DNA of 32,000 nucleotides from an uncultured archaeon (GTDB lineage: Archaea > Iainarchaeota > Iainarchaeia > Iainarchaeales > JAAZKV01): assembly GCA_964551375.1 (NCBI GenBank), contig CAZKBG010000001.1, forward strand, positions 30,001-62,000, given 5' to 3'. How positions within the stretch are numbered: the first letter of the stretch is position 1; every line of letters begins with the position of its first letter. A program made the translations under genes and the position numbers. Of the stretch, positions 2,964-17,271 are shown piece by piece. Under the pieces are notes generated by a model. The model worked only from the letters and a program-made list of their open reading frames with translations. It was not told where the DNA came from and did no database searches.

Positions 2964-3214
2964 TAGTTAAACCCCTAATATTTAACTTTCTAAGATTAAT
3001 TAGTTATACAACTGTTTTTAATCATTTCTGAAAGTGAATTGCAAAAATTTTCATAGAACTCTCAAAAGTTAATTTGTAAAATCAATCCTTGACTAAAAGA
3101 GAACGTATATATTGAAGTTCTGTGGTAAGTTATGCAAATCACTTGAGTTAACTCTTTTTTTGCCTTACATAGAGAGCGTGGCGGTGGTTTAAGTGTATAC
3201 AGAGAGGTGTATCG

Positions 3215-6200
3215 ATGGGCGATTGTAAAGGAGAGTGTGGATGTGACAGGTCTGACATTTTGGGGGCAAGGAAATTTTTAATTCCGTTTGCCATAGTTTT
3301 AGTATTATTAATGGCCGTGACGGCGTTTGCGGTGCCTTTAGAGGCGCTAGGCGCATCTGTTGGGCCGGACAACGTTACAGTAACAATAAGTCCAGGAGTA
3401 ACTAATTGTGATACTCTTGGAAAGGAATTTACGGTAACGGTAAAAAATGAATTAACAAATGTTCATGGAGTGTATGAAGTAAGAGTGTATAGAAGCGATA
3501 CGGGAATTGACGCAAATAGTTTTGTTTGCGGCTCTGCGCCAGTTGGATGGACTCTTTCTGATTATGCTGGGGGAGACCCTAATTTAGAAGATTATGGTTA
3601 TTGTGAATACAAAACCAGAATGACAGGCGCGTATGTAATAACGCCTGGAACAAGCCTTGACTTTAAGTTCAAAGCAACAATGATTAAAAGCGATGCTTGT
3701 GAAAGTGTTTTCACTATTTCTTCGCTTGACAACGGACAGCCAATAGGAGACCACGAGTGGGACAACCCTCAAGTACTCATTGACTGCACTCAACCAGTTG
3801 TTGACAAGAAACTAGGAACTCCATACTTCAATTTGGATGGAGACGATTACATAACTCAAAACACAATGATAGCAGTAACATCAAGCGACATGGAAAAATG
3901 CGACCTTGGCGTAAACAACTGCACAGTATATTACACAGTTAACGGAGTAGAGCAGAAGCCAATGGTAAAAGAAGGCGAGGAAGCTCTTGCATTTGAGTTC
4001 AACTTTGAACAGGACTCAAGACACGATGTTAACTTAGTATGTGTTGATAACGCAGGAAACTCGACAACAATAAAAGAAACTGATTTTGTTGAAACAGTTC
4101 CTCCAGAAACAACAAAAACATACGGAAAGCCGTTCTACGAAGTTGACGGAACATTGCACTATATTACAAGCGCAACTCCAATAGATTTCAACGCGGTTGA
4201 TCCAAGCCCTCACCCAAGCGGAGTGAAGGATTTGAATTATAGAGTTACTCTAATTGATGACAGCGTATGCTTCAGAGGATGCACGGATGTTGAAGGAAAA
4301 GGGGATTGGATAACTACAACTCCTAATACTACAATCACCATCGCTGAACAATCATGCCATCTAATAGAGTTCCAGTCAGTTGATAATCTTGGAAACTTGG
4401 AAAACCTAAAACACCAGTGCGTGTTTGTTGATAACACAGATCCATTATTAACAAAAGAAATTGGAACACCAAGCATAATCGGGGCAGATGTTAATTGGGT
4501 AAGACAAGACACACCAATAACACTGACTTGCGAAGACCAGCAGCCACACCCAAGCGGGGATGTAACAATAAGCTGGCAGATAACGCTTGACGGAAACTTA
4601 GGCGAAGTACAGAGCGTTAATGACAATACAACAACAATTTACTTCCCAGAAGACTCAGTACATGTGCTTGACGCATGGTGCACTGATGCAGTAGGAAATG
4701 AATCAGCACACGATGTGCAGCTATTCAAAGTAGATTCAACTCCTCCAGAACTAACAAAAACAATGCTAGGGACAGAAGATGTTGATTACGTTGGAGACTG
4801 CCCTCCAGAAAGCCCTGAAGATATCTGCTTTGTAGCTGATAATGGAAGAGGCGGAGTGAACGCAATAGTAAGCGACCCTGATCCAACAGGATACGGATGC
4901 AACGTTGACAGCTCAACATGTGCATACGAAGTTTGGTGGACAGCTACAGTTCAACAATGTAAAGATGCTGAAGGACAAGGTTATAACGATGTAAATGGCG
5001 AATGCCTGCTAGATGTTGGAAGATTCGATGAAAACGGAACAAATATCCTATTCAGAAAAGATTCCACACATAGACTTGTTATAAACTGTAAAGATGCTTT
5101 AGGAAACGAAATGACAACGGATGTTGAAGTATTCAAAGTAGATTCAACACCTCCAGTAACAACAAAAACATACGGTACTCCAACAGTAGTAAAGGGAGAT
5201 TACCGCTGGATAACAACAGACACAAACATTACTCTAGAAGCAACTGACAACAAAGTAGGAGTGGATGAAACATTCTACCTTGTTACACAAATGCAATTGT
5301 CAGAAGAAGAGTGCTCACAAGTGTGCTCTGATAGAGAAGTATTCAGTGTTTTAGATGTGGAAGTTCCAGAATTCATGGAATACGAAGGACCATTCACAAT
5401 CGCTGAAGATTCTTGCCACAAAATACAATACTACTCAGTAGACAAATTAGGAAATACAGAGAGAGTAAAAGAACAGTGCGTATTTGTTGATACTGCGGCT
5501 CCAGAAGTTGTAAAAACTATTGGGGATCCAAAAGTGATTGACGGCGAACTAACTTTCATCTCACAACAAACTCCAATAACTCTAACCTGCACGGATGTAA
5601 AACCACACCCAGTTGGGGACGTGAATTTAATGTACAGGTACAGAGTAAGCACTGACTGCCAGGATTGGAATGCATGGTCATCATGGATTGATCCACCGGT
5701 AGGACAGGGAGAAAAGACAATATACTTCGAAGAAGATTCCTGCCACCAGCTTGAATACACATGCTCGGACGGATTAGGAAACGCTACTGAAGTAGAATCA
5801 GAAATAGATATTGTAGACACACAAGCTCCAGAAATTGACATAAACGTAGTTGGACCACAAATCGAACAGGCATGCCCTGGCGATATGGACGGCAACTGCT
5901 TGTACATAGATGGAGTGACAAAATTAGTGGTAACTGCAGTTGATCCGCAGCCTCATCCAGTGAACGGCGTAACCTGTGATTGGGATTACAAAGTAAGCGA
6001 AGGAGAGAAGACAGGACAAGGTGCAGAAGGAGTAACACCACCATTTGAAATCAACTTCCCAGAACAGTCAATGCACTCACTAAAAGTAGTGTGCAGAGAT
6101 GCTTTAGGAAATGACAATGGATTAGTAACAGAATACATTGTAGACAAAACTCCTCCAGTAATAAAGAAGAAATATTTGGGACCATACTTCTCAGACAATA

Positions 6201-7498
6201 ATGGAGTAGAATGGATTAATTCCCTAACAGAAATAGAAATAACAGCGGAGGATCCATTACCGCACCCATCAGGACTGAAATCACTTGAATACAGAATCAG
6301 TCTTGTAGCGGACAACTACTGCACAAGCCAGGAAATATGCCAGGACGCAGTTGGAAGCGGAGAATGGAATGATGTGGAAGGAAACGTAAATGTAGGTGAA
6401 CAGTCCTGCCACTTAATAGAAATAAAGGCAACAGACAATGTTGAAAAGACAGCAACACACAAACAATGTGTGTATGTTGATAACACACCTCCAACACCAG
6501 TAAAGACAGTTGGAACACCTCACACAAAGTGGACACCAGGACAAAACGGACAGCCAGGAAGTATCTTCTATCCATGGATAAATGATGCATGCTGGGCTGA
6601 TGTGAACGGAATAGACTGCTGGAAAGTTCCACTATACACGCCAATATCACTACAGTGCAATGATCCACTACCTCATCCAGTGAACAATTCAAAAGTATGT
6701 TTCAACGTGGAGTGGGATGCAACAGACATAACACAGAAGTATTGTAGAGGCATGGAAGGAGAGATAGGAGAAGATGGTTACTGCTGCCTATCAAACACAA
6801 CAGATAACTTCTACTTCGGAGAAGAAACAGAGCATAACCTGAAGTTCTACTGCGCAGATGCATTAGGAAACAAGGGGCTTGTTGACGATGAGAAGTTCAA
6901 GGTAGAAGGAACACCATTTGAGATAGAATTAAACAAGAAATGGAATCTAATCTCAGTTCCATTCGTATTGCTAGACAGCAATATAACAACAGTTCTAGAG
7001 AGCGACAGCGAAAACATTGCGGGAGTATGGACATACGACGCTATCACAAACCAGTGGTACGTATATAACCCATCAAGCCCAAGCACAAGCAACTTAGATA
7101 CAATGGAGCCGGGAAACGGTTACTGGGTAGCTGCATATAATCCAAGTGTATTGGAAATAGCAGGTAGTTTATTCAGCCCAATAACAACACCTCCTGATAA
7201 AGCTCTCAAAGCTGGGTGGAACCTAATAGGTTACTATGGCACAGACGGACAGTCAGTATATGACGGCCCAGATCACGCCGGAAGACCAGCAAGCTGCGTG
7301 CTATACTCGCTAGGAGAAACTCTACTAGATAAAGGATGGACAGCGCTACTCGGATACTGGGAGCCAAACAATCCAAATGCATGGGAAGAATATAGCTACC
7401 CAAGCAGAATGGATCCAGGCGCAGGATACTGGGTTAACGCAACAGAAGACAGCACATATAGCTATTCAACAGTTTGCGGCGGATTCTTTCTTAATTAA
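3215..7498 (+). CDS. Giant secreted surface protein with nine tandem Ig-like adhesin-type domains and a conserved C-terminal WNLI/GYWV module
   Basis: Uninterrupted 1427-aa ORF with an N-terminal hydrophobic signal/anchor (FLIPFAIVLVLLMAVTAFAVP). The domain-boundary motif V-D-x-T-x-P-x-x-x-K-x-x-G-x-P recurs nine times. Each is preceded by an H-x-L/I-x-Y/F-x-S/C-x-D-x-L/A-G-N-x-E pattern and a D-P-x-P-H-P-S/V-G motif. A TTG at 3260 would give a more canonical signal peptide (MGARKFLIPF...), so the start is uncertain. Confidence 0.9.
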   Translation: MGDCKGECGCDRSDILGARKFLIPFAIVLVLLMAVTAFAVPLEALGASVGPDNVTVTISPGVTNCDTLGKEFTVTVKNELTNVHGVYEVRVYRSDTGIDANSFVCGSAPVGWTLSDYAGGDPNLEDYGYCEYKTRMTGAYVITPGTSLDFKFKATMIKSDACESVFTISSLDNGQPIGDHEWDNPQVLIDCTQPVVDKKLGTPYFNLDGDDYITQNTMIAVTSSDMEKCDLGVNNCTVYYTVNGVEQKPMVKEGEEALAFEFNFEQDSRHDVNLVCVDNAGNSTTIKETDFVETVPPETTKTYGKPFYEVDGTLHYITSATPIDFNAVDPSPHPSGVKDLNYRVTLIDDSVCFRGCTDVEGKGDWITTTPNTTITIAEQSCHLIEFQSVDNLGNLENLKHQCVFVDNTDPLLTKEIGTPSIIGADVNWVRQDTPITLTCEDQQPHPSGDVTISWQITLDGNLGEVQSVNDNTTTIYFPEDSVHVLDAWCTDAVGNESAHDVQLFKVDSTPPELTKTMLGTEDVDYVGDCPPESPEDICFVADNGRGGVNAIVSDPDPTGYGCNVDSSTCAYEVWWTATVQQCKDAEGQGYNDVNGECLLDVGRFDENGTNILFRKDSTHRLVINCKDALGNEMTTDVEVFKVDSTPPVTTKTYGTPTVVKGDYRWITTDTNITLEATDNKVGVDETFYLVTQMQLSEEECSQVCSDREVFSVLDVEVPEFMEYEGPFTIAEDSCHKIQYYSVDKLGNTERVKEQCVFVDTAAPEVVKTIGDPKVIDGELTFISQQTPITLTCTDVKPHPVGDVNLMYRYRVSTDCQDWNAWSSWIDPPVGQGEKTIYFEEDSCHQLEYTCSDGLGNATEVESEIDIVDTQAPEIDINVVGPQIEQACPGDMDGNCLYIDGVTKLVVTAVDPQPHPVNGVTCDWDYKVSEGEKTGQGAEGVTPPFEINFPEQSMHSLKVVCRDALGNDNGLVTEYIVDKTPPVIKKKYLGPYFSDNNGVEWINSLTEIEITAEDPLPHPSGLKSLEYRISLVADNYCTSQEICQDAVGSGEWNDVEGNVNVGEQSCHLIEIKATDNVEKTATHKQCVYVDNTPPTPVKTVGTPHTKWTPGQNGQPGSIFYPWINDACWADVNGIDCWKVPLYTPISLQCNDPLPHPVNNSKVCFNVEWDATDITQKYCRGMEGEIGEDGYCCLSNTTDNFYFGEETEHNLKFYCADALGNKGLVDDEKFKVEGTPFEIELNKKWNLISVPFVLLDSNITTVLESDSENIAGVWTYDAITNQWYVYNPSSPSTSNLDTMEPGNGYWVAAYNPSVLEIAGSLFSPITTPPDKALKAGWNLIGYYGTDGQSVYDGPDHAGRPASCVLYSLGETLLDKGWTALLGYWEPNNPNAWEEYSYPSRMDPGAGYWVNATEDSTYSYSTVCGGFFLN
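3782..6904 (+). repeat. Array of ~9 divergent Ig-like protein-domain repeats (100-135 aa each) inside the 1427-aa CDS
   Basis: Boundaries by eye at about aa 189, 292, 405, 506, 642, 758, 867, 976 and 1088 (IDCTQP, VETVPP, VDNTDP, VDSTPP x2, VDTAAP, VDTQAP, VDKTPP, VDNTPP). Confidence 0.75.
6476..7498 (+). repeat. Copy A of the shared ~340-aa C-terminal module (paralogous to 12005-13012)
   Basis: From VDNTPPTPVKTVGTPHTKWTPGQNGQPGSIFYPWINDACW to the C-terminus. It aligns colinearly with the C-terminus of the next protein, with many identical blocks (NGQPGSIFYPWIN, VNGIDCWKV, SKVCFNVEWDA, EHNLKFYC, NKKWNLIS, EPGNGYWVAA, LKAGWNLIGYYGT, RMDPGAGYW). Confidence 0.9.
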
Positions 7499-7525
7499 GA
7501 ATCCGTCCTTTAATTTTTTTAGGGG

Positions 7526-10500
7526 ATGAAGAACTTGAATGAAAATTTCAACAAGAAAGTGAACCTAAAAAAATTAAGAACAGTAATGATTATTGGAATG
7601 GTATTGGCAATCTCAATGATTGCCATTGCCTGTCCAACAACAACACTAACAACAACTCCAATAAATCCTAATTCTTACGGGTGGTTTAACCCAATAGTAA
7701 AAGTTTCTATTAATCTTTCACCAGGAAGCGTTCCTGGAATTATAAAATACACTTATGATTTAAACAAAAAAAGAACTCCTTACCCTGATTTGAATTGGCT
7801 GGGAGACACTAACTATCTTCACGGAATAAAAACAATCAGATACGCTGCTGTGGGAAAAGACGGAAGCAAAGAACCTGAAAAAACTTACACTGTGCAGGTT
7901 GATAGCATTGCCCCTGAAACTTTAGGATTCTCGCTTGACACCACAAATGGAGTAATTTACAATCCAGGCGCAAGAGCATTTGATATTAATTATGGGATAG
8001 TAAAAGTAAGGATAATATCAGGGGACAATACCTCTGGACTAAGCACCTGTCAATTAAATTTTGATTATAACGCGCTCAACCCGACAGCAGGGTGGGATGC
8101 TCCAACTCCAAACGTTGATTTAACTTATGGACACTTGCACTATTATGACACTAACGGGATAAAAGTAATTGTAATTAAATGCACTGATAAGGGACTTAAT
8201 ACTAGCACGCCAGCACTATCTCCATTTACATTTAGAGTAATTAATCCATATGATCGGACTCCTCCAATTTCAACACTAATAATAGATACTAACTCAACAA
8301 GCACGGAAGAATGTTATAATGACAAAGTGCTTGTTTCAATAATAGCTGAAGACCCGCAAAGCGGAGTGGCAGCAATAAAATACTGTATTGATACAAATGA
8401 CACTTGCGTTCCAAATATTAATTACACAACCCAGTTGCTTTTTACTGATGGAAAGAAATACTTGCGGTACAGGGCAATAAACCTGCACGGCGTGGAAGAA
8501 AACATAAACAGCGAAATGATTAACATTGATAAGAATGGATGCGGAAGAGAATGCGAACCCCACACAATAGGGTACTGGAAACAACCATGTAAAGGACACT
8601 ACGAACATGAAACACAAGCATCAATGCTTGGATACCTTGCGGAAATACAAGCGACAAGCGATTACTTTGACTTTATTTCAAGCTTTAATGGAATGTGCGA
8701 TATATTAGACCCTGATGAGCCCGCAACTATGAAGCAAAGGGCAAAACAACAATTTCTTGCACTTTGGCTGAACGTGGTGACAGACAAACTTTTCACTTAC
8801 ACTACAATAAGCCTCCCCGCATACACTGATGCGAACACAGTGGGCGGAGCAATAACAGTTATACAAAATAATATTAGCTCAAATTCCGAAAAAGCAAAAA
8901 CAATTGCTGACAAGTTAAACAATGGAATTGGAATTGTGGATTGTCAGCCCTCAAAACCGCTAAAGATAATTGCACAAAAAATTGTTTGCGAAAATGAAGC
9001 TGACTTGCCAAACTGGGGACTTGGTGGACCAAATATTACTGCCCTAACAGCGATGAGCTTTGTTGCAACCCACCCAGGATGCAAATTTGATTCTAACTGG
9101 TACTTCCAATGGGCAAAATCAGGCACCTCAAATCCTGGAAGCAACACAGGAGAAGCAGCACCAAACACAGGGTGGAAAACATTTGGACCAACCAATGCTC
9201 AGGGAGAGGTAAATATACTAATATCTGATTTTAACAAAACAAACAAAATTTGGGTAAGAGAAGTATTCAAACAAGGATACGTTTCGTTTACTTATGACAC
9301 AAACGGAAACTCAAATAATGTAAGCGCGGAAATTTACTGCTACAAGGATGTATTTAACTATGATAACTATGACAGTATTGGGGCTCCTCAATTAGGAAGG
9401 ACTTATTACTGTGTGGCATGGAATGCTATAAAAAAATATGAATGCACAAGCGACGCAAATTGCAGTGATGGAGTATATTGTAACGGAGCGGAGAAATGCA
9501 ATCTCCAAAATCACAAATGTGAAAAAGGAATACTTATTGATTGCAATTCATTAAACGATCAGTGCAATAGCGGAGTGTGCGATGAGAATGTTGATAAGTG
9601 CATAGCTAATCCTGTGCCAAATGGAACTACTTGTAATGATAATTTATTCTGCAATACTGGTGAAGTGTGCAATAATGGAAAATGTGGAAATGGGGGAGTA
9701 AGGGATTGCAGTGATTACAATATACTTGGAATATCAACTTGTCTTTGGGACCCTGATGGTTTAGATTATACTTGGGATTTTAGAAGTTCCTTTACAAGCA
9801 TTTGCAATGAAGAACTTGACAAGTGCGCTGTTGGCGATTACAACATAACACACATTGTTGATGAAAAGTGCGCTGAATGCCTTGGAGATTCTGACTGCCC
9901 TCAGCCGGAAAATGCATGCATGGAAAACAGATGCCAAAACTACAAATGCGCACTAACTCCAAAACCATCAACTACTTCGTGCAATAACGGGGCTTATTGT
10001 GACGGGGCTGATAGGTGTGATGGAAACGGAATGTGCCTTGCAACTGGGTCTAGCGTCGACTGCAGCGGGCTTGATGATCAGTGCAATAGCGGAGTGTGCG
10101 ATGAGAATGTTGATAAGTGCATAGCTAATCCTGTGCCAAATGGAACTACTTGTAATGATAATTTGTTTTGCAATGTTGGTGAAGTGTGCGATAATGGAAA
10201 ATGTGAAAGCGGACAGGCAAGAGATTGTAGCGACAATAATATACTTGGGATATCTTCATGTTTTTGGAATCCTGATGGTTTAGATTATACTTGGGATTTT
10301 AGAAATCCTTTCACAAGTATTTGTGATGAAGGGAATGATAAGTGTACAACTGGGGACTTAAACATTAATCACACAATTGATCCAAAATGCACTAAATGCA
10401 TGACGGACTCGGACTGCCCAGCGCTTGAAAATTCATGCATGGAAAATAGATGCATAGAATACAAATGCGTTGAAACACCAAAACCATCTCAAACAACATG

Positions 10501-13012
10501 TGACAATGGACTCTATTGTGATGGCGCTGATAGGTGTGATGGGAATGGAATGTGCTTTGCGACTGGGTCTAGCGTGGATTGCAGTGGACTTGATGATCAG
10601 TGCAATAGCGGAGTGTGCGATGAAAACCAAAATTCATGTGTAAAAACTCCTGCAAGAAACGGAGCAGCGTGTGATGATAACTTATTTTGTAATACTGGTG
10701 AAGTGTGCAGCAATGGAATTTGTGGAAACGGAAATACAAAAGACTGCAGCGAAAATAATATCCTTGGAGTATCATCCTGCTTGTGGATACCTGATGGTTT
10801 AGATTATACTTGGGATTTTAGAAATCCTTTCACAAGTATTTGTGATGAAGGGAATGATAAATGTACAACAGGGGACTTAAACATCAATCACACAATTGAT
10901 GAAAAATGTGCTGAGTGCATGATAGATGCTGATTGCCCAACGCTTGAAAACTCCTGTGCGGAGAATAAATGCTTAAACTATAAATGTGTTGAAACTCCAA
11001 GGCCGACAACAACAGTTTGTGATAATGGAACTTATTGTGATGGCGCTGATAGGTGTGATGGAAATGGGGCGTGTAAATCTACAGGTACTCCAGTAGATTG
11101 TAGTTCACTAAATAATCAATGCAATAGTGGAGTGTGTGATGAGAATATTGAAGGGTGCGTAGCACAGCCTGTGCCAAATGGAACTACTTGTAATGATGAT
11201 TTGTTTTGCAATACTGGTGAAATATGCCTTAATGGAACGTGTGGCGGTGGGCAGGCGAGAGATTGTTCAGGATTTAACTTAAACCCAATTGGACAGTGCG
11301 ATTACTTCCCTGATGGATATGCTTGGACTTATGACTACTTCCTTGGATTCTTAAGCCAGTGCAGTGAAGAACAAGACAAATGCACTGATGGCAACATAAC
11401 AATAACTTCTTACTGCAGCACAGAGAATTGCGACGCAGAATGTGAAACGGATCTTGATTGCAGCGCCCACTTTGATGGAAACGTGTGCAATTATAGGGGA
11501 CTTTGCGGAGCAGAGCCAAGCTGCGCATGCAGTTACCAAAAAGAACTTTGCCCTGCACCAGGAACAATAGTTGATGGGTACTGCTACTGGGGAAATGGAG
11601 CATGTACAAGCACTGGATGCGATTTGAACAAAACAAGAATGGATTGCTACAAGCGATGCGACCCAATACTTGGGCCTGTGGAACTTCCAATTATAAAAAC
11701 AACCAAATTTGTTGGACAGCCAAAATCCCATTGCAATTATTTAGGAGATTTAAACGAAGCAGAAGAATGTTTATTTGTAACTACTGCTACTGAATTTATG
11801 CTTGATTCAAACGATTCAAATGCAAGCACATATTACAGACAGAGATGGAAAGAGGATTATAACAGTACCTGGGGAAATTGGAGCGAGTGGAATGAATACA
11901 CTCAGCCGTTTAATTACCTTGAAGATTCAATACATGAACTTGAATATTATTCAATAAATGAAATTTGCGAAATCGAAGAAAAACACAATTATGAAATTGA
12001 CATAGTGGACACAAAAGCGCCAAGCGCAAAGAAAACAGTGGAGAACCCAAAAGTAAAATGGACTCCGTCAAAGAATGGACAACCTGGTAGCATATTCTAT
12101 CCGTGGATAAATAATGCGTGTTGGAATGATGTGAACGGAATAGACTGTTGGAAAGTAACTCTTGATACGCCAATATCATTTGACTGCAATGATTTACAAC
12201 CTCATCCATCAAACAACTCAAAAGTATGTTTCAACGTGGAGTGGGATGCTAATGACATCACGCCAAAATACTGTACTCAAATGCAAGGGACAATAGGGCA
12301 GGACGGTTACTGCTGTGTTCCTGATGATGCTAGAAAATTCAATTTCCTTGAAGAAACAGAACACAACTTAAAATTCTATTGTAAAGATGTGCTTGGAAAC
12401 AAAAGCCCAATTGATGATGAGAAATTCAAAGTAGGGGGAACAGAGTTTGAAATCCAATTGAATAAAAAATGGAACCTAATCTCAATACCATTTGCGCTCC
12501 TTGATAGCAATGTGGCTGAAGTAATTGATGAAATTGACCAAAATATTGAATCAGTGTGGACTTATGATGCATTTACTGATCAATGGTATGTGTATAGACC
12601 GCTAAGCCCAAGCACAAGCAACTTAGAAACAATAGAACCAGGAAATGGCTACTGGGTAGCGGCGCTCAACCCAGCAAAATTAGTTCTTGGAGGAAGCTTG
12701 TTTAATCCAATAGCAACCCCTCCTCAAAAATCGCTCAAAGCTGGATGGAACTTAATAGGGTATTATGGCACTGAAGGGCAGATGGGTTATTACGGACCAA
12801 TTGGCTCAGGAAAAACAGCAGGATGCGAACTATACTCGCTTGGAAACACAATTCTTGACAAAGGATGGACTTCATTATTCACATTTTGGGCGCTAAGAAC
12901 CCCAAGTCAGTGGCTAGATTTGAGCTATTACAACAGAATGGATCCAGGCGCAGGATACTGGATATCTGTGCCTAGTGATGATGTTTTAAGCTACTCTTCA
13001 ACATGCAGTTAG
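7526..13012 (+). CDS. Giant secreted cysteine-rich surface protein (Ig-like N-terminal domains, 4 tandem Cys-rich modules, shared C-terminal WNLI/GYWV module)
   Basis: Uninterrupted 1828-aa ORF with an N-terminal hydrophobic segment (VMIIGMVLAISMIAIA). The N-terminal third has VDSIAPET / DRTPPIST domain boundaries. The central part is four 173-aa Cys-rich modules. The C-terminal 335 aa are paralogous to the preceding gene. It starts only 27 nt after the previous stop. Confidence 0.9.
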   Translation: MKNLNENFNKKVNLKKLRTVMIIGMVLAISMIAIACPTTTLTTTPINPNSYGWFNPIVKVSINLSPGSVPGIIKYTYDLNKKRTPYPDLNWLGDTNYLHGIKTIRYAAVGKDGSKEPEKTYTVQVDSIAPETLGFSLDTTNGVIYNPGARAFDINYGIVKVRIISGDNTSGLSTCQLNFDYNALNPTAGWDAPTPNVDLTYGHLHYYDTNGIKVIVIKCTDKGLNTSTPALSPFTFRVINPYDRTPPISTLIIDTNSTSTEECYNDKVLVSIIAEDPQSGVAAIKYCIDTNDTCVPNINYTTQLLFTDGKKYLRYRAINLHGVEENINSEMINIDKNGCGRECEPHTIGYWKQPCKGHYEHETQASMLGYLAEIQATSDYFDFISSFNGMCDILDPDEPATMKQRAKQQFLALWLNVVTDKLFTYTTISLPAYTDANTVGGAITVIQNNISSNSEKAKTIADKLNNGIGIVDCQPSKPLKIIAQKIVCENEADLPNWGLGGPNITALTAMSFVATHPGCKFDSNWYFQWAKSGTSNPGSNTGEAAPNTGWKTFGPTNAQGEVNILISDFNKTNKIWVREVFKQGYVSFTYDTNGNSNNVSAEIYCYKDVFNYDNYDSIGAPQLGRTYYCVAWNAIKKYECTSDANCSDGVYCNGAEKCNLQNHKCEKGILIDCNSLNDQCNSGVCDENVDKCIANPVPNGTTCNDNLFCNTGEVCNNGKCGNGGVRDCSDYNILGISTCLWDPDGLDYTWDFRSSFTSICNEELDKCAVGDYNITHIVDEKCAECLGDSDCPQPENACMENRCQNYKCALTPKPSTTSCNNGAYCDGADRCDGNGMCLATGSSVDCSGLDDQCNSGVCDENVDKCIANPVPNGTTCNDNLFCNVGEVCDNGKCESGQARDCSDNNILGISSCFWNPDGLDYTWDFRNPFTSICDEGNDKCTTGDLNINHTIDPKCTKCMTDSDCPALENSCMENRCIEYKCVETPKPSQTTCDNGLYCDGADRCDGNGMCFATGSSVDCSGLDDQCNSGVCDENQNSCVKTPARNGAACDDNLFCNTGEVCSNGICGNGNTKDCSENNILGVSSCLWIPDGLDYTWDFRNPFTSICDEGNDKCTTGDLNINHTIDEKCAECMIDADCPTLENSCAENKCLNYKCVETPRPTTTVCDNGTYCDGADRCDGNGACKSTGTPVDCSSLNNQCNSGVCDENIEGCVAQPVPNGTTCNDDLFCNTGEICLNGTCGGGQARDCSGFNLNPIGQCDYFPDGYAWTYDYFLGFLSQCSEEQDKCTDGNITITSYCSTENCDAECETDLDCSAHFDGNVCNYRGLCGAEPSCACSYQKELCPAPGTIVDGYCYWGNGACTSTGCDLNKTRMDCYKRCDPILGPVELPIIKTTKFVGQPKSHCNYLGDLNEAEECLFVTTATEFMLDSNDSNASTYYRQRWKEDYNSTWGNWSEWNEYTQPFNYLEDSIHELEYYSINEICEIEEKHNYEIDIVDTKAPSAKKTVENPKVKWTPSKNGQPGSIFYPWINNACWNDVNGIDCWKVTLDTPISFDCNDLQPHPSNNSKVCFNVEWDANDITPKYCTQMQGTIGQDGYCCVPDDARKFNFLEETEHNLKFYCKDVLGNKSPIDDEKFKVGGTEFEIQLNKKWNLISIPFALLDSNVAEVIDEIDQNIESVWTYDAFTDQWYVYRPLSPSTSNLETIEPGNGYWVAALNPAKLVLGGSLFNPIATPPQKSLKAGWNLIGYYGTEGQMGYYGPIGSGKTAGCELYSLGNTILDKGWTSLFTFWALRTPSQWLDLSYYNRMDPGAGYWISVPSDDVLSYSSTCS
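9440..11640 (+). repeat. Tandem in-frame 519-bp (173-aa) cysteine-rich module, about 4 copies (last one divergent)
   Basis: The landmark CAGTGCAATAGCGGAGTGTGCGATGA (QCNSGVCDE) starts at 9560, 10079 and 10598. A variant (CAATGCAATAGTGG...) starts at 11117. The period is exactly 519 nt. Each unit has fixed Cys spacing (..NGxYCDGADRCDGNGxC..QCNSGVCDE..C..NGTTCNDNLFCNTGEVC..G.C..DCS..). Confidence 0.95.
12005..13012 (+). repeat. Copy B of the shared ~340-aa C-terminal module (paralogous to 6476-7498)
   Basis: From VDTKAPSAKKTVENPKVKWTPSKNGQPGSIFYPWINNACW to the C-terminus. At DNA level it shares exact stretches with copy A, for example tcaaaagtatgtttcaacgtggagtgggatgc at 6689-6720 and 12218-12249. 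Confidence 0.9.
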
Positions 13013-13102
13013 AAGATACGCTGGAAGATAAGTTGTTTTTGCCAATCAAGAAAGGTTTTTATGCACTTTGCAAAGGAATTATGATAGATAGTTAATTTGT
13101 TA

Positions 13103-13112
13103 ACTATAAAAG
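13103..13112 (+). promoter_or_regulatory. TATA-like box upstream of the 13138 start
   Basis: actataaaag is centred about 31 nt upstream of ATG 13138. This favours that ATG over the TTG at 13129 used by the ORF track. Confidence 0.45.
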
Positions 13113-13137
13113 AGGAGTATTTGGGGGATTGATTTTC

Positions 13138-14196
13138 ATGGGGTCAGCAAAGTATTTTTCAATGCTAATTTTTTCTATTTTTATTTTAGGAGTTGCTCTT
13201 GCGGCTCCAGGGATACCACACCAGTTTTATGGATTTGTGACAATCAACGGAGCGCCGGCAAATGGAGCGTTAATAGTTGCAAAAATAAATAACGTTGAAG
13301 TTTCAAGAACCCTGAGCTCAAACGGAAATTACGGGTACAATCCAAATATTTTCTATGTTCCAGACCCAAACAGCAACAACGCTGGAAAAAGAATTGACTT
13401 TTATTTAAGCGGAACGCTTGTAGCAAACAAATACTTTGAAAGTGGAACAAGCACAAAACTTGATTTTAATTTAGGAATAGCTCCATTTTGCGGAGACACT
13501 AGCTGCAACGCAGGAGAAACATGCTCAACATGCGCAACTGATTGCGGAGTATGCCCTTCAACAGGTGGCGGAGGGGGAGGCGGCGGTGGCGGAGGAGCTC
13601 CAGTAGCCCAAAGCATTAATGTTCAAGTAACAGGAAACTGCCTTGGAAAACCAATAGTATTGAAAGCAACAGCAGGAACAACAGCACTTGGCTCAGCAAC
13701 AGTAAGCGTAAAACACAACAACAATACTTCCCAAACAACAACAGATGCAAATGGCGGAATAACATTCACATTCAATGAACTTGGAAAATACGAGTTCACA
13801 GTAACAAAGAACTCCTATAGCCCTGCAACAAAACAAGTTGATGTATTAAACTGCACAGGGGAAACAACAAACACAGGGACTGGAAGCGGCGCAGGTGCTG
13901 ATTTATGCTCAAACAAAAACTGCAACGACTTAAACCCATGCACTGATGATTCATGCGCGCTAGGCGTATGCAACTATGCATTCAAATCAGATGGAACAAC
14001 ATGCGGAACAGAACTAACATGCCAGAAAGGAGAATGCGTTGCAAAAATTGTGGAACCAGTTAACACAGCTACTGGGGCAGGGGCTGCAACAGGATTATTC
14101 GCACTTGGAACAGATACTGCTATGCCAATAGTTCTTGTAATAGTAATAATTGCCATATTTGCAATACTATTGCTATTAAGCAGAAGAAAAAAGTGA
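13138..14196 (+). CDS. Cys-rich, tail-anchored surface protein with Gly11 linker and carboxypeptidase-regulatory-like beta-sandwich domain
   Basis: Signal peptide (FSMLIFSIFILGVALAAPG). Cys knot CGDTSCNAGETCSTCATDCGVC. Eleven consecutive Gly at 13564-13596. The segment VQVTGNCLGKPIVLKATAG...TTDANGGITFTFNELGKYEFTVTKNSYSP fits the CarboxypepD_reg-like pattern. A second Cys-rich block (NPCTDDSCALGVCNYAFKSDGTTCGTELTCQKGEC) resembles the modules of the 1828-aa protein. A C-terminal TM helix is followed by RRKK. Confidence 0.85.
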   Translation: MGSAKYFSMLIFSIFILGVALAAPGIPHQFYGFVTINGAPANGALIVAKINNVEVSRTLSSNGNYGYNPNIFYVPDPNSNNAGKRIDFYLSGTLVANKYFESGTSTKLDFNLGIAPFCGDTSCNAGETCSTCATDCGVCPSTGGGGGGGGGGGAPVAQSINVQVTGNCLGKPIVLKATAGTTALGSATVSVKHNNNTSQTTTDANGGITFTFNELGKYEFTVTKNSYSPATKQVDVLNCTGETTNTGTGSGAGADLCSNKNCNDLNPCTDDSCALGVCNYAFKSDGTTCGTELTCQKGECVAKIVEPVNTATGAGAATGLFALGTDTAMPIVLVIVIIAIFAILLLLSRRKK

Positions 14197-14556: not shown

Positions 14557-17271
14557 TTAAACAAGTGGAACTATTTGAAGCCCTGCGATTTGAGAATACC
14601 CGCCTATTGAAGGAACATCAATCACAACAGTGTCGCTTCCTCCAACAGAAATATTAGAAAATACACTATACTGCTCTCCTTCCATCCATCTTGCAAGAGT
14701 GGCTGAGTGAGTTCCGGCATTTGTTTTAGTTCCTTGGCTTATGCCTCCAACAGAAAGAGTGTATTGGCAGGAAGTAGCATCCCAAGGGCTGCAATAAAGC
14801 ACAAAGTTGTAATCATTTGCGCTAAGCCCGGTTAGGGTAATGCTTGAAGCCGCGCCTGAGCGATAAATATAGCCGTTAAACATTGCATCATTTAGATTTG
14901 TGCTTCCACCCCACCCTCCGCCAAATCCTCCAAGCGTCATTGAAACCCCTGTAACATTTCCATTAGCATCAAGAACATTTGGAGAGCTCATGCTTGATGA
15001 AGTCAAGTTCCAATAGTAGGTGTTTCCATCATTATACATTCCGCTTCCAGAATATGATGAGGGGCTGTAATCAAAATTAATCGCTCGTTTTCTTCTTGCA
15101 TCCTGCGATGGGGTTTGCGCGGTTAAATTATTTGAAGTAATTATCTGCAGTCCTGACATGTTTTGCCCTATTGTAATTTTAATAGGGTCATTATAATCCG
15201 ACACATGAATGTTGTTAATTGTAGTGTACTGCTCTCCCGCCATCCACCTTGACAAAAACTTTGCATGCCCATTTCCGGCAGATTTTGAGCCGTAATTCAC
15301 AAGGTCAGTTGCAATTGTAAAGTTGTTCACAGTTGCGTCATCAGGAACGCCGTACAATACTAAATTGTAATCCCCTGCGGGAAGTCCAATTATTTTGACT
15401 AAACTTCCGTTGTAAATATATCCGTTAAACATTGAGTCATTCACTCCGCTTGTCCCTCCCCAGTTTCCAGCCATGTTTGAAATTACCGCAATCCCTTCTG
15501 TGGAATTATTATTCCCGTCCTTAATTGTGGATGATGTGGTGGTTCCGTTTGCAAGAGGATTCCATTTGTAAGTATTCCCATCGTTGAATTTTCCATTTCC
15601 AGTGTAAGAACCGTCCCCTCCGCAGTCAAAGTGAAGAGACTGCTTTAGATATGGATTTTGTTCAGAAGGAAGAGCTGTGACAAGGGAAGATCCGTTTACT
15701 GGAATAATCTGCCATCCTGAAATATTTGAGCTTACATTCACCTTAATTGGATCGTTATAATCCGAAACATGAACATTGCTGAATGTGTGATATTGTTCCC
15801 CCTCAACCCAGCTCGCAAGATTTCTATTGCTCCCTGAAGAAGTGCCTGCAGTTTTTGCACCATAGCTTGCAAGATCAGTTGAAACAGTGTGAGTATCAAC
15901 TCCAGTAGGCGCAACATAAAGAACAAGATTGTAATCCCCTGCAGGAAGACCGATTATTTTTGCGAGATTTCCTGTATAGCTGTAATTTTCAAACATTGAG
16001 TCATTAACTCCATTAGAAAGTCCCCAACCTCCAGTAAAGTTTGATGTAAAAGAAACTCCTGGGACTGCATTGTCATTTGCATCCTTTATTGAAGGCGAGT
16101 ATAAGGTAGTGTTACCAACAGTATTCCATTTATATGATTGGCCGTTGTTGAATTTTCCGCTCCCTGTGTAAAGACCACTCCCTGCAAAGTCAAAGAATAT
16201 TCCATAAGAAATTGGATTAGCAAGAACAGTAATTGTAATCAAAAAGTCGCTTGTGTTTGGGTTGCCAGCAGTGTCAATGCATCTGATATAAACATTATTA
16301 CTTCCAGTCGCAAGCCCGCTAATAGTTGCCGAGTGGGAAGTCACTGAATCAGTAAAACTATTGGTCATGCTTGCATATGCGACTCCTGTAGAAGTTGAAT
16401 ATCTGCAAGCCGCATTTTCATCCGTGGTGATTGTGAGTCCGTAAGTTGTAGTTCCAAACGCAAGCGCGCTGGGGTTTGAGCCTGATATAACCGGAGGGGT
16501 GGCATCAGCGCCAACTGTAATAGTTACAAGCGTGTCGTCTGAGATAGAGCTGTTTGAAACACTTTGACATTTAATATAAATATTATTGGCTCCAGTTACT
16601 AACGAACCCACAGTTGCTGAGTGGGTTAATTCACTTCCTGAAAAACTATTAGCTTGGCTGGAAAAAGCAACTCCACTAGAAGAATCATACTTACAATTAG
16701 CATTAACATCAGTGTTAATATCAAGAGCATAACTTGCTGTTCCATAAGCAAGGGTGGCTGGGTTTGATGCGCTGATTATTGGAGGCGCAGCAAGAGCAAC
16801 AGCTCCGCGTGCAATGCAATCAATGTAAAGTGTTCCATAATCCACTGTTTTTTCTAAACCAGCATCAGAAACATAATTTACTTTAACAGTGTAAGTCTTT
16901 TGATTCGGGGAGTCACAGGCGGGAAGGTTGCTCAATGAAAAGCTTTTCACATCATTTTGAGCAAATGAAAGACTTGAACCGATTGGATAATTTGTGTCAT
17001 TAATTATAAACCCGGTAATTCTAATTGTTTCCCCAGTGTTATTTTGGAGAACAAATAATCCATTAGCATCAGTTCCAATTGCAGCGTCATTTACTCCTAC
17101 AATTTGGGACATTGCATTTATTTTGCTTGATTTGGATGCTCCCCCCGAAGAGCTTTGGGCAGTTGTATCGACAAGAAGCCCGACAACAACAAGCGCAATT
17201 ACAATTACAATTGCAATAATTACAAGATATTCGATTGTCCCTTGGGCGCGGTTGTTTTTATTTTCAGCCAT
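14557..17271 (-). CDS. Large surface protein with archaeal class III (type IV prepilin-like) signal peptide and repeated beta-sandwich / lectin-like domains
   Basis: 904-aa ORF. The N-terminus is MAENKNNRAQGTIEYLVIIAIVIVIALVVVGLLV: a charged n-region, an RA|QGTIE site with Gln at +1 and Glu at +5, then a ~22-residue hydrophobic helix. Two ~93-aa repeats and three ~175-185-aa repeats follow. There is no C-terminal anchor. Confidence 0.9.
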   Translation of the reverse strand: MAENKNNRAQGTIEYLVIIAIVIVIALVVVGLLVDTTAQSSSGGASKSSKINAMSQIVGVNDAAIGTDANGLFVLQNNTGETIRITGFIINDTNYPIGSSLSFAQNDVKSFSLSNLPACDSPNQKTYTVKVNYVSDAGLEKTVDYGTLYIDCIARGAVALAAPPIISASNPATLAYGTASYALDINTDVNANCKYDSSSGVAFSSQANSFSGSELTHSATVGSLVTGANNIYIKCQSVSNSSISDDTLVTITVGADATPPVISGSNPSALAFGTTTYGLTITTDENAACRYSTSTGVAYASMTNSFTDSVTSHSATISGLATGSNNVYIRCIDTAGNPNTSDFLITITVLANPISYGIFFDFAGSGLYTGSGKFNNGQSYKWNTVGNTTLYSPSIKDANDNAVPGVSFTSNFTGGWGLSNGVNDSMFENYSYTGNLAKIIGLPAGDYNLVLYVAPTGVDTHTVSTDLASYGAKTAGTSSGSNRNLASWVEGEQYHTFSNVHVSDYNDPIKVNVSSNISGWQIIPVNGSSLVTALPSEQNPYLKQSLHFDCGGDGSYTGNGKFNDGNTYKWNPLANGTTTSSTIKDGNNNSTEGIAVISNMAGNWGGTSGVNDSMFNGYIYNGSLVKIIGLPAGDYNLVLYGVPDDATVNNFTIATDLVNYGSKSAGNGHAKFLSRWMAGEQYTTINNIHVSDYNDPIKITIGQNMSGLQIITSNNLTAQTPSQDARRKRAINFDYSPSSYSGSGMYNDGNTYYWNLTSSSMSSPNVLDANGNVTGVSMTLGGFGGGWGGSTNLNDAMFNGYIYRSGAASSITLTGLSANDYNFVLYCSPWDATSCQYTLSVGGISQGTKTNAGTHSATLARWMEGEQYSVFSNISVGGSDTVVIDVPSIGGYSQIAGLQIVPLV
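14560..16209 (-). repeat. Three tandem ~175-185-aa domain repeats (aa 355-904), lectin/CBM-like by pattern
   Basis: Shared blocks across three copies: FD..G.G.YTG.GKFN(D/N)G.(S/T)YKWN, GGWG...GVNDSMF.(N/G)Y.Y.G, IIGLPAGDYNLVLY, W..GEQY....N(V/I)HVSDYNDPIK, G(W/L)QI(I/V). Confidence 0.85.
16222..16788 (-). repeat. Two tandem ~93-aa domain repeats (aa 162-350) in the 904-aa protein
   Basis: PPIISASNPATLAYGTASYALDINTDVNANCKYDSSSGVAFSSQANSFSG..THSATVGSLVTGANNIYIKCQ aligns with PPVISGSNPSALAFGTTTYGLTITTDENAACRYSTSTGVAYASMTNSFTD..SHSATISGLATGSNNVYIRCIDTAGN. By eye this pattern recurs in many metagenomic Ig/Fn3-like surface proteins. Confidence 0.85.
17167..17271 (-). other. Class III signal peptide / pilin-like N-terminal helix (predicted prepilin-peptidase site RA|QGTIEY)
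   Basis: aa 1-35 of the 904-aa protein. This is the pattern known for archaeal pilins/archaellins and DUF361-type pilin-like proteins (Q at +1, acidic residue at +5, long hydrophobic stretch). Confidence 0.75.

Follow-up and report, generated by a model that had tools for sequence, protein, structure and literature searches.

Two giant proteins and a smaller partner are encoded on the same strand of a 32,000-nucleotide stretch from an uncultured archaeon of the Iainarchaeota (GenBank assembly GCA_964551375.1, contig CAZKBG010000001.1, positions 30,001 to 62,000; hereafter the window, whose numbering is used here). The giants, P0001 and P0002, differ over most of their length and end in the same C-terminal domain (CTD), and the partner, P0003, begins with a conserved domain of its own (the N-domain) and ends in a predicted membrane anchor. 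We propose that the CTD probably docks on the partner N-domain, which would hold otherwise free giants on the cell. That the CTD and partner genes are functionally coupled is much more certain than that their products touch. A first-pass annotation of the sequence had suggested cell-envelope attachment as one possible role of the shared C-terminal module; the lack of an anchor in the giants and the co-occurring downstream gene for a membrane-tethered partner strengthen this idea, and the physical docking itself we infer.

The pairing of the two genes is extensive. Of 45 fetched loci that span 6 kb or more, 43 have a partner homologue directly downstream of the CTD genes and on the same strand, mostly after a gap of 50 to 250 bp; the fetched loci have no other conserved neighbor of the cassette and no conserved flanks. 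Of the 215 genomes in the window's phylum, 26 are CTD positive. At E≤1e-35 the partner occurs in 25 of these and in no other genome, and in 23 the two genes are adjacent on the same contig; the CTD match of the remaining CTD-positive genome (G057) is weak and partial. A second phylum, sampled as 301 genomes around a Woesearchaeota metagenome-assembled genome (MAG), has an adjacent partner in all nine genomes with a full CTD, and weaker CTD-like matches there, many covering only one of the two units that make up the domain, also precede partner-like genes. Among these weaker matches are a divergent giant of 1700 amino acids (aa) and a 224-aa protein that is CTD only. The latter belongs to a minimal pair (locus L132, 2117-4427, G256:C2): the 224-aa protein has a signal anchor, two WNLI...GYW units and little more, and after a 1-nt gap comes a 544-aa partner-like protein whose transmembrane (TM) helix lies in mid-chain, ahead of a long, charged cytoplasmic tail. 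Where two or three giants form an array they are accompanied by a single partner, always at the 3' end, giving one partner per array of one to three giants. The layout of the window, with two giants and one partner, is therefore the rule and not an oddity.

The earlier annotation described the last ~340 aa of the two giants as colinear and about two-thirds identical. In a BLASTP alignment of 374 columns and two gaps (E 2e-147), P0001 residues 1050-1421 and P0002 residues 1454-1827 are 62% identical, so that the shared module is slightly longer than first described; from its sequence it reads as one OmpL47-type immunoglobulin-like (Ig-like) domain with a 'PxPHP' motif, followed by the ~190-aa CTD. 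The Ig-like domain aligns weakly with the internal repeats of P0001 (26-28% identity by BLASTP). DNA identity is patchy, as had been noticed: it is 66% overall and 50% at third codon positions, and the longest exact runs are 32, 28, 24, and 21 nt. By the Nei-Gojobori method, the proportions of nonsynonymous (pN) and synonymous (pS) differences are 0.169 and 0.767 in the Ig-like part (P0001 residues 1100-1230, 72.5% aa identity), and 0.229 and 0.682 between the CTD copies. Synonymous sites are saturated and replacement changes are held down (pN 0.17-0.23 versus pS 0.68-0.77), and the module is therefore under purifying selection, which agrees with the earlier view that it has been maintained. 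The same saturation supports an old duplication, as had also been proposed, and the copies appear to be either the products of such a duplication or separately acquired.

The regions upstream had been called unrelated. Most of this sequence does differ between the giants, but both contain OmpL47-type domains, scoring above the 40-bit cut-off of NF047446 (OmpL47-type beta-barrel domain) with 112 bits in three stretches of P0001 and 49.2 bits in P0002. The likeness to Leptospira OmpL47 ends with these repeated Ig-like domains, as the equivalog model NF047441 gives only 111 bits for P0001 and 36 bits for P0002 against a cut-off of 250, the domain type is all that is in common, and OmpL47 has no CTD. 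P0001 is collinear from residue ~15 to its end with ~23 homologues of 1400-1550 aa (35-41% identity), and appears by this comparison to be a canonical full-length family member. P0002 has in common with most relatives only residues ~1450 to the end (the last ~375). Its N-terminus, signal or lipobox-like, leads into OmpL47-type domains; a region of helices and beta strands and four Cys-rich repeats come next, ahead of the shared module. The repeats are 71-86% identical in DNA at a spacing of 519 nt and belong, we suggest, to the variable 'cargo' of P0002, pointing to a recent internal expansion of that variable part; they came from a separate repeat search, Tandem Repeats Finder having reported no repeats in the island of the cassette genes. 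The hydrophobic stretch at the N-terminus of P0002 (7526-7660, + strand) ends in the lipobox-like 'IAIAC', and this protein might be lipid modified, unlike P0001. Between the two genes, an inverted repeat, GGATTCTTTCTTAATTAAGAATCC, at 7480-7525 spans the P0001 stop codon and has a T-run behind it, only 27 nt ahead of the P0002 start; it looks terminator-like or attenuator-like.

The most conserved positions of the CTD across 187 relatives form two similar blocks, KKWNLISVP...W.YD...W...PGxGYW and GWNLIGYYG...YWE...W...PGAGYW, which in P0001 read KKWNLISVP...PGNGYW and GWNLIGYYG...PGAGYW. The two halves of the domain are homologous (hhalign probability 95%, E 2.7e-8), which makes the CTD a ~95-aa 'WNLI...PGxGYW' unit duplicated internally. 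A pair of Cys residues is conserved in the same relatives, at 95% and 98%. An AlphaFold2 model built from a 70-sequence alignment of the window and fetched loci has a pLDDT of 91.8 and a pTM of 0.89, and is all-beta with short helices; a single-sequence run of the 334-aa module gave a pLDDT of 34 and was not used. The CTD has no sequence match in Pfam, NCBIfam, or PDB, and the last 330 aa of either giant match no Pfam family at E≤0.1. Foldseek searches with the model returned nothing at E≤0.001 (PDB best E 0.07 with TM-scores of at most 0.23; BFVD best E 0.035). The match to a known catalytic domain that would have told against an attachment role was thus not encountered in Pfam, NCBIfam, PDB, or the two Foldseek databases. 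The model suggests that the CTD could be a new fold relative to solved and viral structures, a suggestion we make only tentatively and jointly with the docking-pair proposal below.

Several known modules were considered for the CTD and set aside. Resemblance to a Kelch beta-propeller, in a profile search of PDB, is confined to short matches of ~27 residues to designer Kelch proteins; no single stretch passes, Foldseek finds no propeller, and the likeness is one of blade-like hairpin motifs only. The CTD unit is not homologous to the partner N-domain (hhalign probability 0.1%). That the giants carry a type I dockerin (PF00404) for docking is contradicted by the lack of a Pfam match in their C-terminal module. 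Being rich in Trp, Tyr, and Gly, as are many carbohydrate-binding modules (CBMs), the CTD might instead be a distal ligand-binding or lectin-like domain for glycans of a host or of the cell's own surface, with the partner as a separate co-adhesin, and genes for a glycosyltransferase and a UDP-glucose dehydrogenase do flank the island. However, these sugar genes are not conserved neighbors, the giants would be left with no means of staying on the cell, and a constant tip for ligand binding leaves unexplained the strict one-to-one pairing with a partner that is conserved only in its N-domain. We regard a lectin role as improbable.

The domain is widespread and is characteristically terminal. A word-indexed search recovered 284 proteins with a CTD, which by source name come from DPANN lineages (Diapherotrites/Iainarchaeota, Micrarchaeota, Woesearchaeota, Aenigmarchaeota, Nanoarchaeota, Pacearchaeota, and Nanohaloarchaeota), and whose N-terminal Pfam domains are very diverse, including DUF4215, MopE, VWA, LamG, PKD, CBM, and integrin-like domains. 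Cluster representatives recovered by exhaustive HMMER searching number 5044 at E≤1e-3, 1503 at E≤1e-10, and 189 at E≤1e-30, and among the matches listed nearly all reach the C-terminus, with a tail of 0-16 aa past the last conserved Cys. A profile search had been recommended to see whether the module defines an archaeal family of C-terminal domains on otherwise unrelated proteins; a large family of this kind does exist, but it is not confined to archaea and occurs also in bacteria of the Candidate Phyla Radiation (CPR). No CTD relatives were found on viral contigs. Of 167 full-length relatives, 135 start with a signal-like hydrophobic stretch, typically of the form '...AFA' followed by 'xH', and none has a C-terminal TM helix; neither do the window's giants, as reported before. 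Proteins with a CTD thus appear from their sequences to be secreted and without an anchor of their own.

The type IX secretion system (T9SS) of Bacteroidota likewise uses a conserved, beta-rich domain at the very C-terminus of its otherwise unrelated cargo, and the CTD could in principle be a sorting or export signal that the partner, as an assembly factor, recognizes and that is then removed. However, the T9SS domain is about half the size of the CTD, is cleaved, and needs an outer-membrane machine, and archaea lack both this machine and an outer membrane to cross. No Por secretion tail was matched in NCBIfam or Pfam, nor was any other sorting-signal model. In the partner N-domain, conservation falls on structural residues, and several members have N, T, or Q in place of the His of its PHQF motif. 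We consider a sorting function highly improbable.

The partner itself is modular, with a signal peptide, the N-domain, a Cys knot, a Gly11 hinge, a CarboxypepD_reg-like domain, a second Cys block, the motif 'TGLFAL', a TM helix, and the terminal residues RRKK. The mid-chain domain scores 31.9 bits with PF13620 (E 1.7e-7), just under the gathering cut-off of 32.3, and precomputed annotation lists PF13620. The N-domain has the consensus 'PGIPHQFYGxVxxNGxPAxxG...KYGYxP...FYVNG' and is without a match in Pfam or PDB; neither it nor the CTD matches a cohesin or dockerin model. It is the sole part of the partner conserved across relatives with different C-terminal ends, and with the CTD of the giants it makes up the only constant elements of the cassette.

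The N-domain begins right at the predicted mature N-terminus (the signal-peptide cleavage site) and is highly conserved there, which raises the question as to whether it and the CTD are head-to-tail polymerization modules that build fibers or chains, for example by strand donation from 'PGIPHQFYG'. One protein would permit such chaining: P0167 (538 aa, locus L131, 1232-2848, on a Logan contig) runs from a signal peptide through the partner N-domain, a Cys-rich part, and an Ig-like domain to the CTD, and its gene lies directly behind another that ends in a CTD. However, nearly all complete partners end in an anchoring device and not in a CTD, and the fusion is known from one short contig. P0167 could be a natural 'chain link', or else the product of a chimeric assembly; the fusion and its place behind another CTD gene also fit a heterotypic interaction, such as the proposed docking of the CTD on the N-domain. 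Polymerization seems to us very unlikely.

How the partner is fixed varies across its family. Of its 89 unique members, 67 have a TM helix and a basic tail at the C-terminus, 13 have a type I dockerin there (PF00404, at 25-33 bits where the cut-off is 22.9), and three have a helical tail that resembles a dockerin; most others seem to be cut off (at least three of them at locus ends), and one is the P0167 fusion. An xTGx motif precedes the helix in 42 of the 67 TM-type partners. The end of these partners, a short (I/P)TGFFGL-like motif followed by a TM helix and a basic tail, recalls at the motif level only the PGF-CTERM signals of archaeosortase substrates; the motif is unlike PGF and lies ~5-10 residues before the helix, and the partner C-terminus matches no NCBIfam sorting-signal model at E≤1. 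In locus L117, a minus-strand stretch (G000:C1:832140-832877) matches the exosortase/archaeosortase family PF09721 with 35 bits, above the cut-off, with three TGA codons inside the match; it could bear on this type of ending, or perhaps represents a broken gene.

The window's partner ends in a TM helix and not a dockerin, and a dockerin together with an adjacent cohesin gene occurs only in CPR relatives. There the cassette has three genes, for a giant with a CTD (E ~1e-31 to 1e-33), a dockerin-type partner, and a protein of ~240-253 aa with a signal peptide, one domain, and a TM helix. The third product has no cohesin match on its own sequence in Pfam, NCBIfam, or PDB; homologues 84-92% identical to it carry PF00963 (cohesin) in precomputed annotation, and are by source name cohesin-domain proteins of Sungbacteria, Vogelbacteria, Paceibacterota, Jorgensenbacteria, and Berkelbacteria. 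It is thus a putative cohesin protein with a TM helix. The contigs with these dockerin cassettes are bacterial: one has a bacterial-type leucyl-tRNA synthetase (954 bits) and another has MurG and an M23 peptidase. One archaeal locus (L092) has a dockerin-like partner followed by a small gene for a signal peptide and TM helix. Across the family, the C-terminal end of the partner appears to be exchangeable yet always a means of fixation to the cell, with the N-domain held constant.

We envisage that the giants would be exported by Sec with cleavable-looking signal peptides, and would reach the surface with no membrane anchor of their own. The CTD would be a compact all-beta plug and the partner N-domain its socket. 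The partner would be fixed by its C-terminus, through a TM helix and basic tail in the window and most DPANN loci, and in the CPR version through a dockerin that would bind the cohesin and TM product of the next gene. Several giants with different N-terminal binding parts, presumably surface adhesins, could then share one anchor, so that the same C-terminal module would be kept under purifying selection while the other parts differ.

Several observations weigh against this proposal. Adjacent genes share a history, and co-occurrence shows functional linkage and not contact. In one Woesearchaeota genome (G215) the full CTD gene lies 160 kb from the partner, and what is adjacent to the partner is a CTD fragment only. 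A 3424-aa protein, P0205, contains the module internally five or more times (each copy with E 1e-12 to 1e-18), and the module therefore need not be terminal. The CPR versions of the CTD are without the Cys pair. The P0167 fusion rests on a single 2.9-kb contig. Lastly, a TATA-like box (TATAAAA, 13104-13111) lies ~30 nt upstream of the partner ATG, after a T5 run past the P0002 stop codon; the partner may have its own promoter and need not be co-transcribed with the giants.

A parallel in gene layout is with the SlaA/SlaB surface layer (S-layer) of Sulfolobales, where adjacent genes on the same strand encode a large, Ig-rich, anchor-less secreted protein and then a smaller protein of ~350 aa with a signal peptide and C-terminal TM helix. 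A giant of ~1450 aa could be the outer lattice, the partner its membrane stalk, and the CTD the joint between them. Gene order and sizes match slaA-slaB, and P0001 is conserved at full length in its ~23 relatives. For Nanobdella, a model of the SlaA/SlaB kind was put forward (10.1101/2023.10.27.564410), and a study of Micrarchaeum weighed one too (10.1101/2021.04.28.441871). Both papers call the S-layer proteins and anchors of DPANN archaea undetermined (10.1101/2023.10.27.564410; 10.1101/2021.04.28.441871); according to the Nanobdella preprint this holds for every DPANN S-layer protein, and the anchors that it assigns are proposals only (10.1101/2023.10.27.564410). However, the giants number one to four per genome and have adhesin-like, highly variable N-terminal modules, with paralogues that carry swapped N-terminal parts sharing one anchor, and the cassette reaches CPR bacteria, where it is tethered via cohesin-dockerin. 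There is no Pfam match, and no fold match was found in a comparison in which only the CTD was modeled; Foldseek found nothing in PDB, in a copy that may or may not hold the SlaA/SlaB entries. The distribution of the cassette is also patchy. The CTD occurs in 26 of the 215 genomes of the window's phylum (12%), a phylum that includes a MAG labeled Candidatus Iainarchaeum, and the cassette is absent from all 37 other genomes of the window's family and all 21 of its genus. An S-layer made of these proteins is therefore, in our view, unlikely.

A wide alignment and a metagenome scan together gave 80 loci. A tree of CTD copies, calculated without support values, clusters some in-locus paralogues and not others. 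Repeated duplication and horizontal spread of the cassette, including between DPANN archaea and CPR bacteria, are both plausible. In the window, the island (3000-14000) has a G+C content of 0.40-0.42 compared with 0.35-0.38 in the flanks, and a strong positive AT skew of up to 0.27; horizontal acquisition is possible, or this may simply be an effect of amino-acid composition. The positions of the cassette genes and their parts are given in Table 1.

Table 1. Cassette genes and their parts, in window coordinates
Feature	Position	Strand	Remarks
P0001, giant protein 1, 1427 aa	3215..7498	+	Signal peptide, ~10 OmpL47-type Ig-like domains, CTD
Shared module copy 1, Ig-like part (P0001 aa 1050-1230)	6362..6904	+	BLASTP; 'PLPHP' motif of OmpL47-type repeats
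CTD copy 1 (P0001 aa 1231-1427)	6905..7495	+	Two ~95-aa units and Cys pair C1361, C1421
P0002, giant protein 2, 1828 aa	7526..13012	+	
Four tandem Cys-rich repeats in P0002	9539..11615	+	519 nt (173 aa) each; repeat search
Shared module copy 2, Ig-like part (P0002 aa 1454-1636)	11885..12433	+	BLASTP
CTD copy 2 (P0002 aa 1637-1828)	12434..13009	+	63% identical to copy 1; hidden Markov model E 3e-86
P0003, partner (putative adaptor/anchor), 352 aa	13138..14196	+	Directly downstream of P0002 gene
Partner N-domain, ~95 aa	13204..13488	+	Alignment of 36 partners
Partner C-terminal anchoring device (predicted)	14089..14178	+	'TGLFAL', ~20-residue TM helix, then RRKK

Two further genes lie close to the cassette. 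A 903-aa protein is encoded convergently to it (14557-17271, - strand), with a class III (type IV pilin-like) signal peptide and a match of 24.1 bits to PF04021; it is not part of the conserved cassette, because a homologue occurs in one other locus only (L045). Upstream of the P0001 gene, a 104-aa open reading frame (2652-2963, - strand) has a counterpart at the same place in each of the three closest loci (L004, L041, and L042) and not elsewhere.

The principle of a docking module and a tethered adaptor is already known from cellulosomes and from SlaA/SlaB, and what is added here is that both domains are families without an assignment. As in the cohesin-dockerin system, a constant docking module ends many secreted proteins, and a receptor module, to which it would bind, is carried by a cell-tethered adaptor; the CPR adaptor carries a true dockerin, with a cohesin and TM helix apparently encoded by the next gene. 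The CTD differs from a dockerin, being ~190 aa, all-beta, and of two units, compared with a Ca-binding dockerin of ~60 aa. The searched literature describes no such module. We suggest, with slightly less than even confidence, that the WNLI...GYW CTD and the 'PHQFYG' N-domain are an undescribed docking pair parallel to dockerin-cohesin and common to DPANN and CPR, that it serves interchangeable giant adhesins and permits cargo swapping, and that the CTD is a new fold.

How surface proteins are attached and hosts are recognized in DPANN archaea and CPR bacteria is largely unknown, and for a sizeable subset of these organisms the cassette is a concrete and testable answer, offering a conserved docking domain, a conserved socket, a recognizable anchor, and thousands of natural cargo variants. 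It contributes two new domain families for annotation, with which thousands of 'hypothetical' giants could be read as anchored surface proteins, and it is a candidate for exchange between archaeal and bacterial episymbionts. If the proposal is true, these ultra-small DPANN and CPR episymbionts could change specificity by exchanging N-terminal cargo on one membrane anchor.

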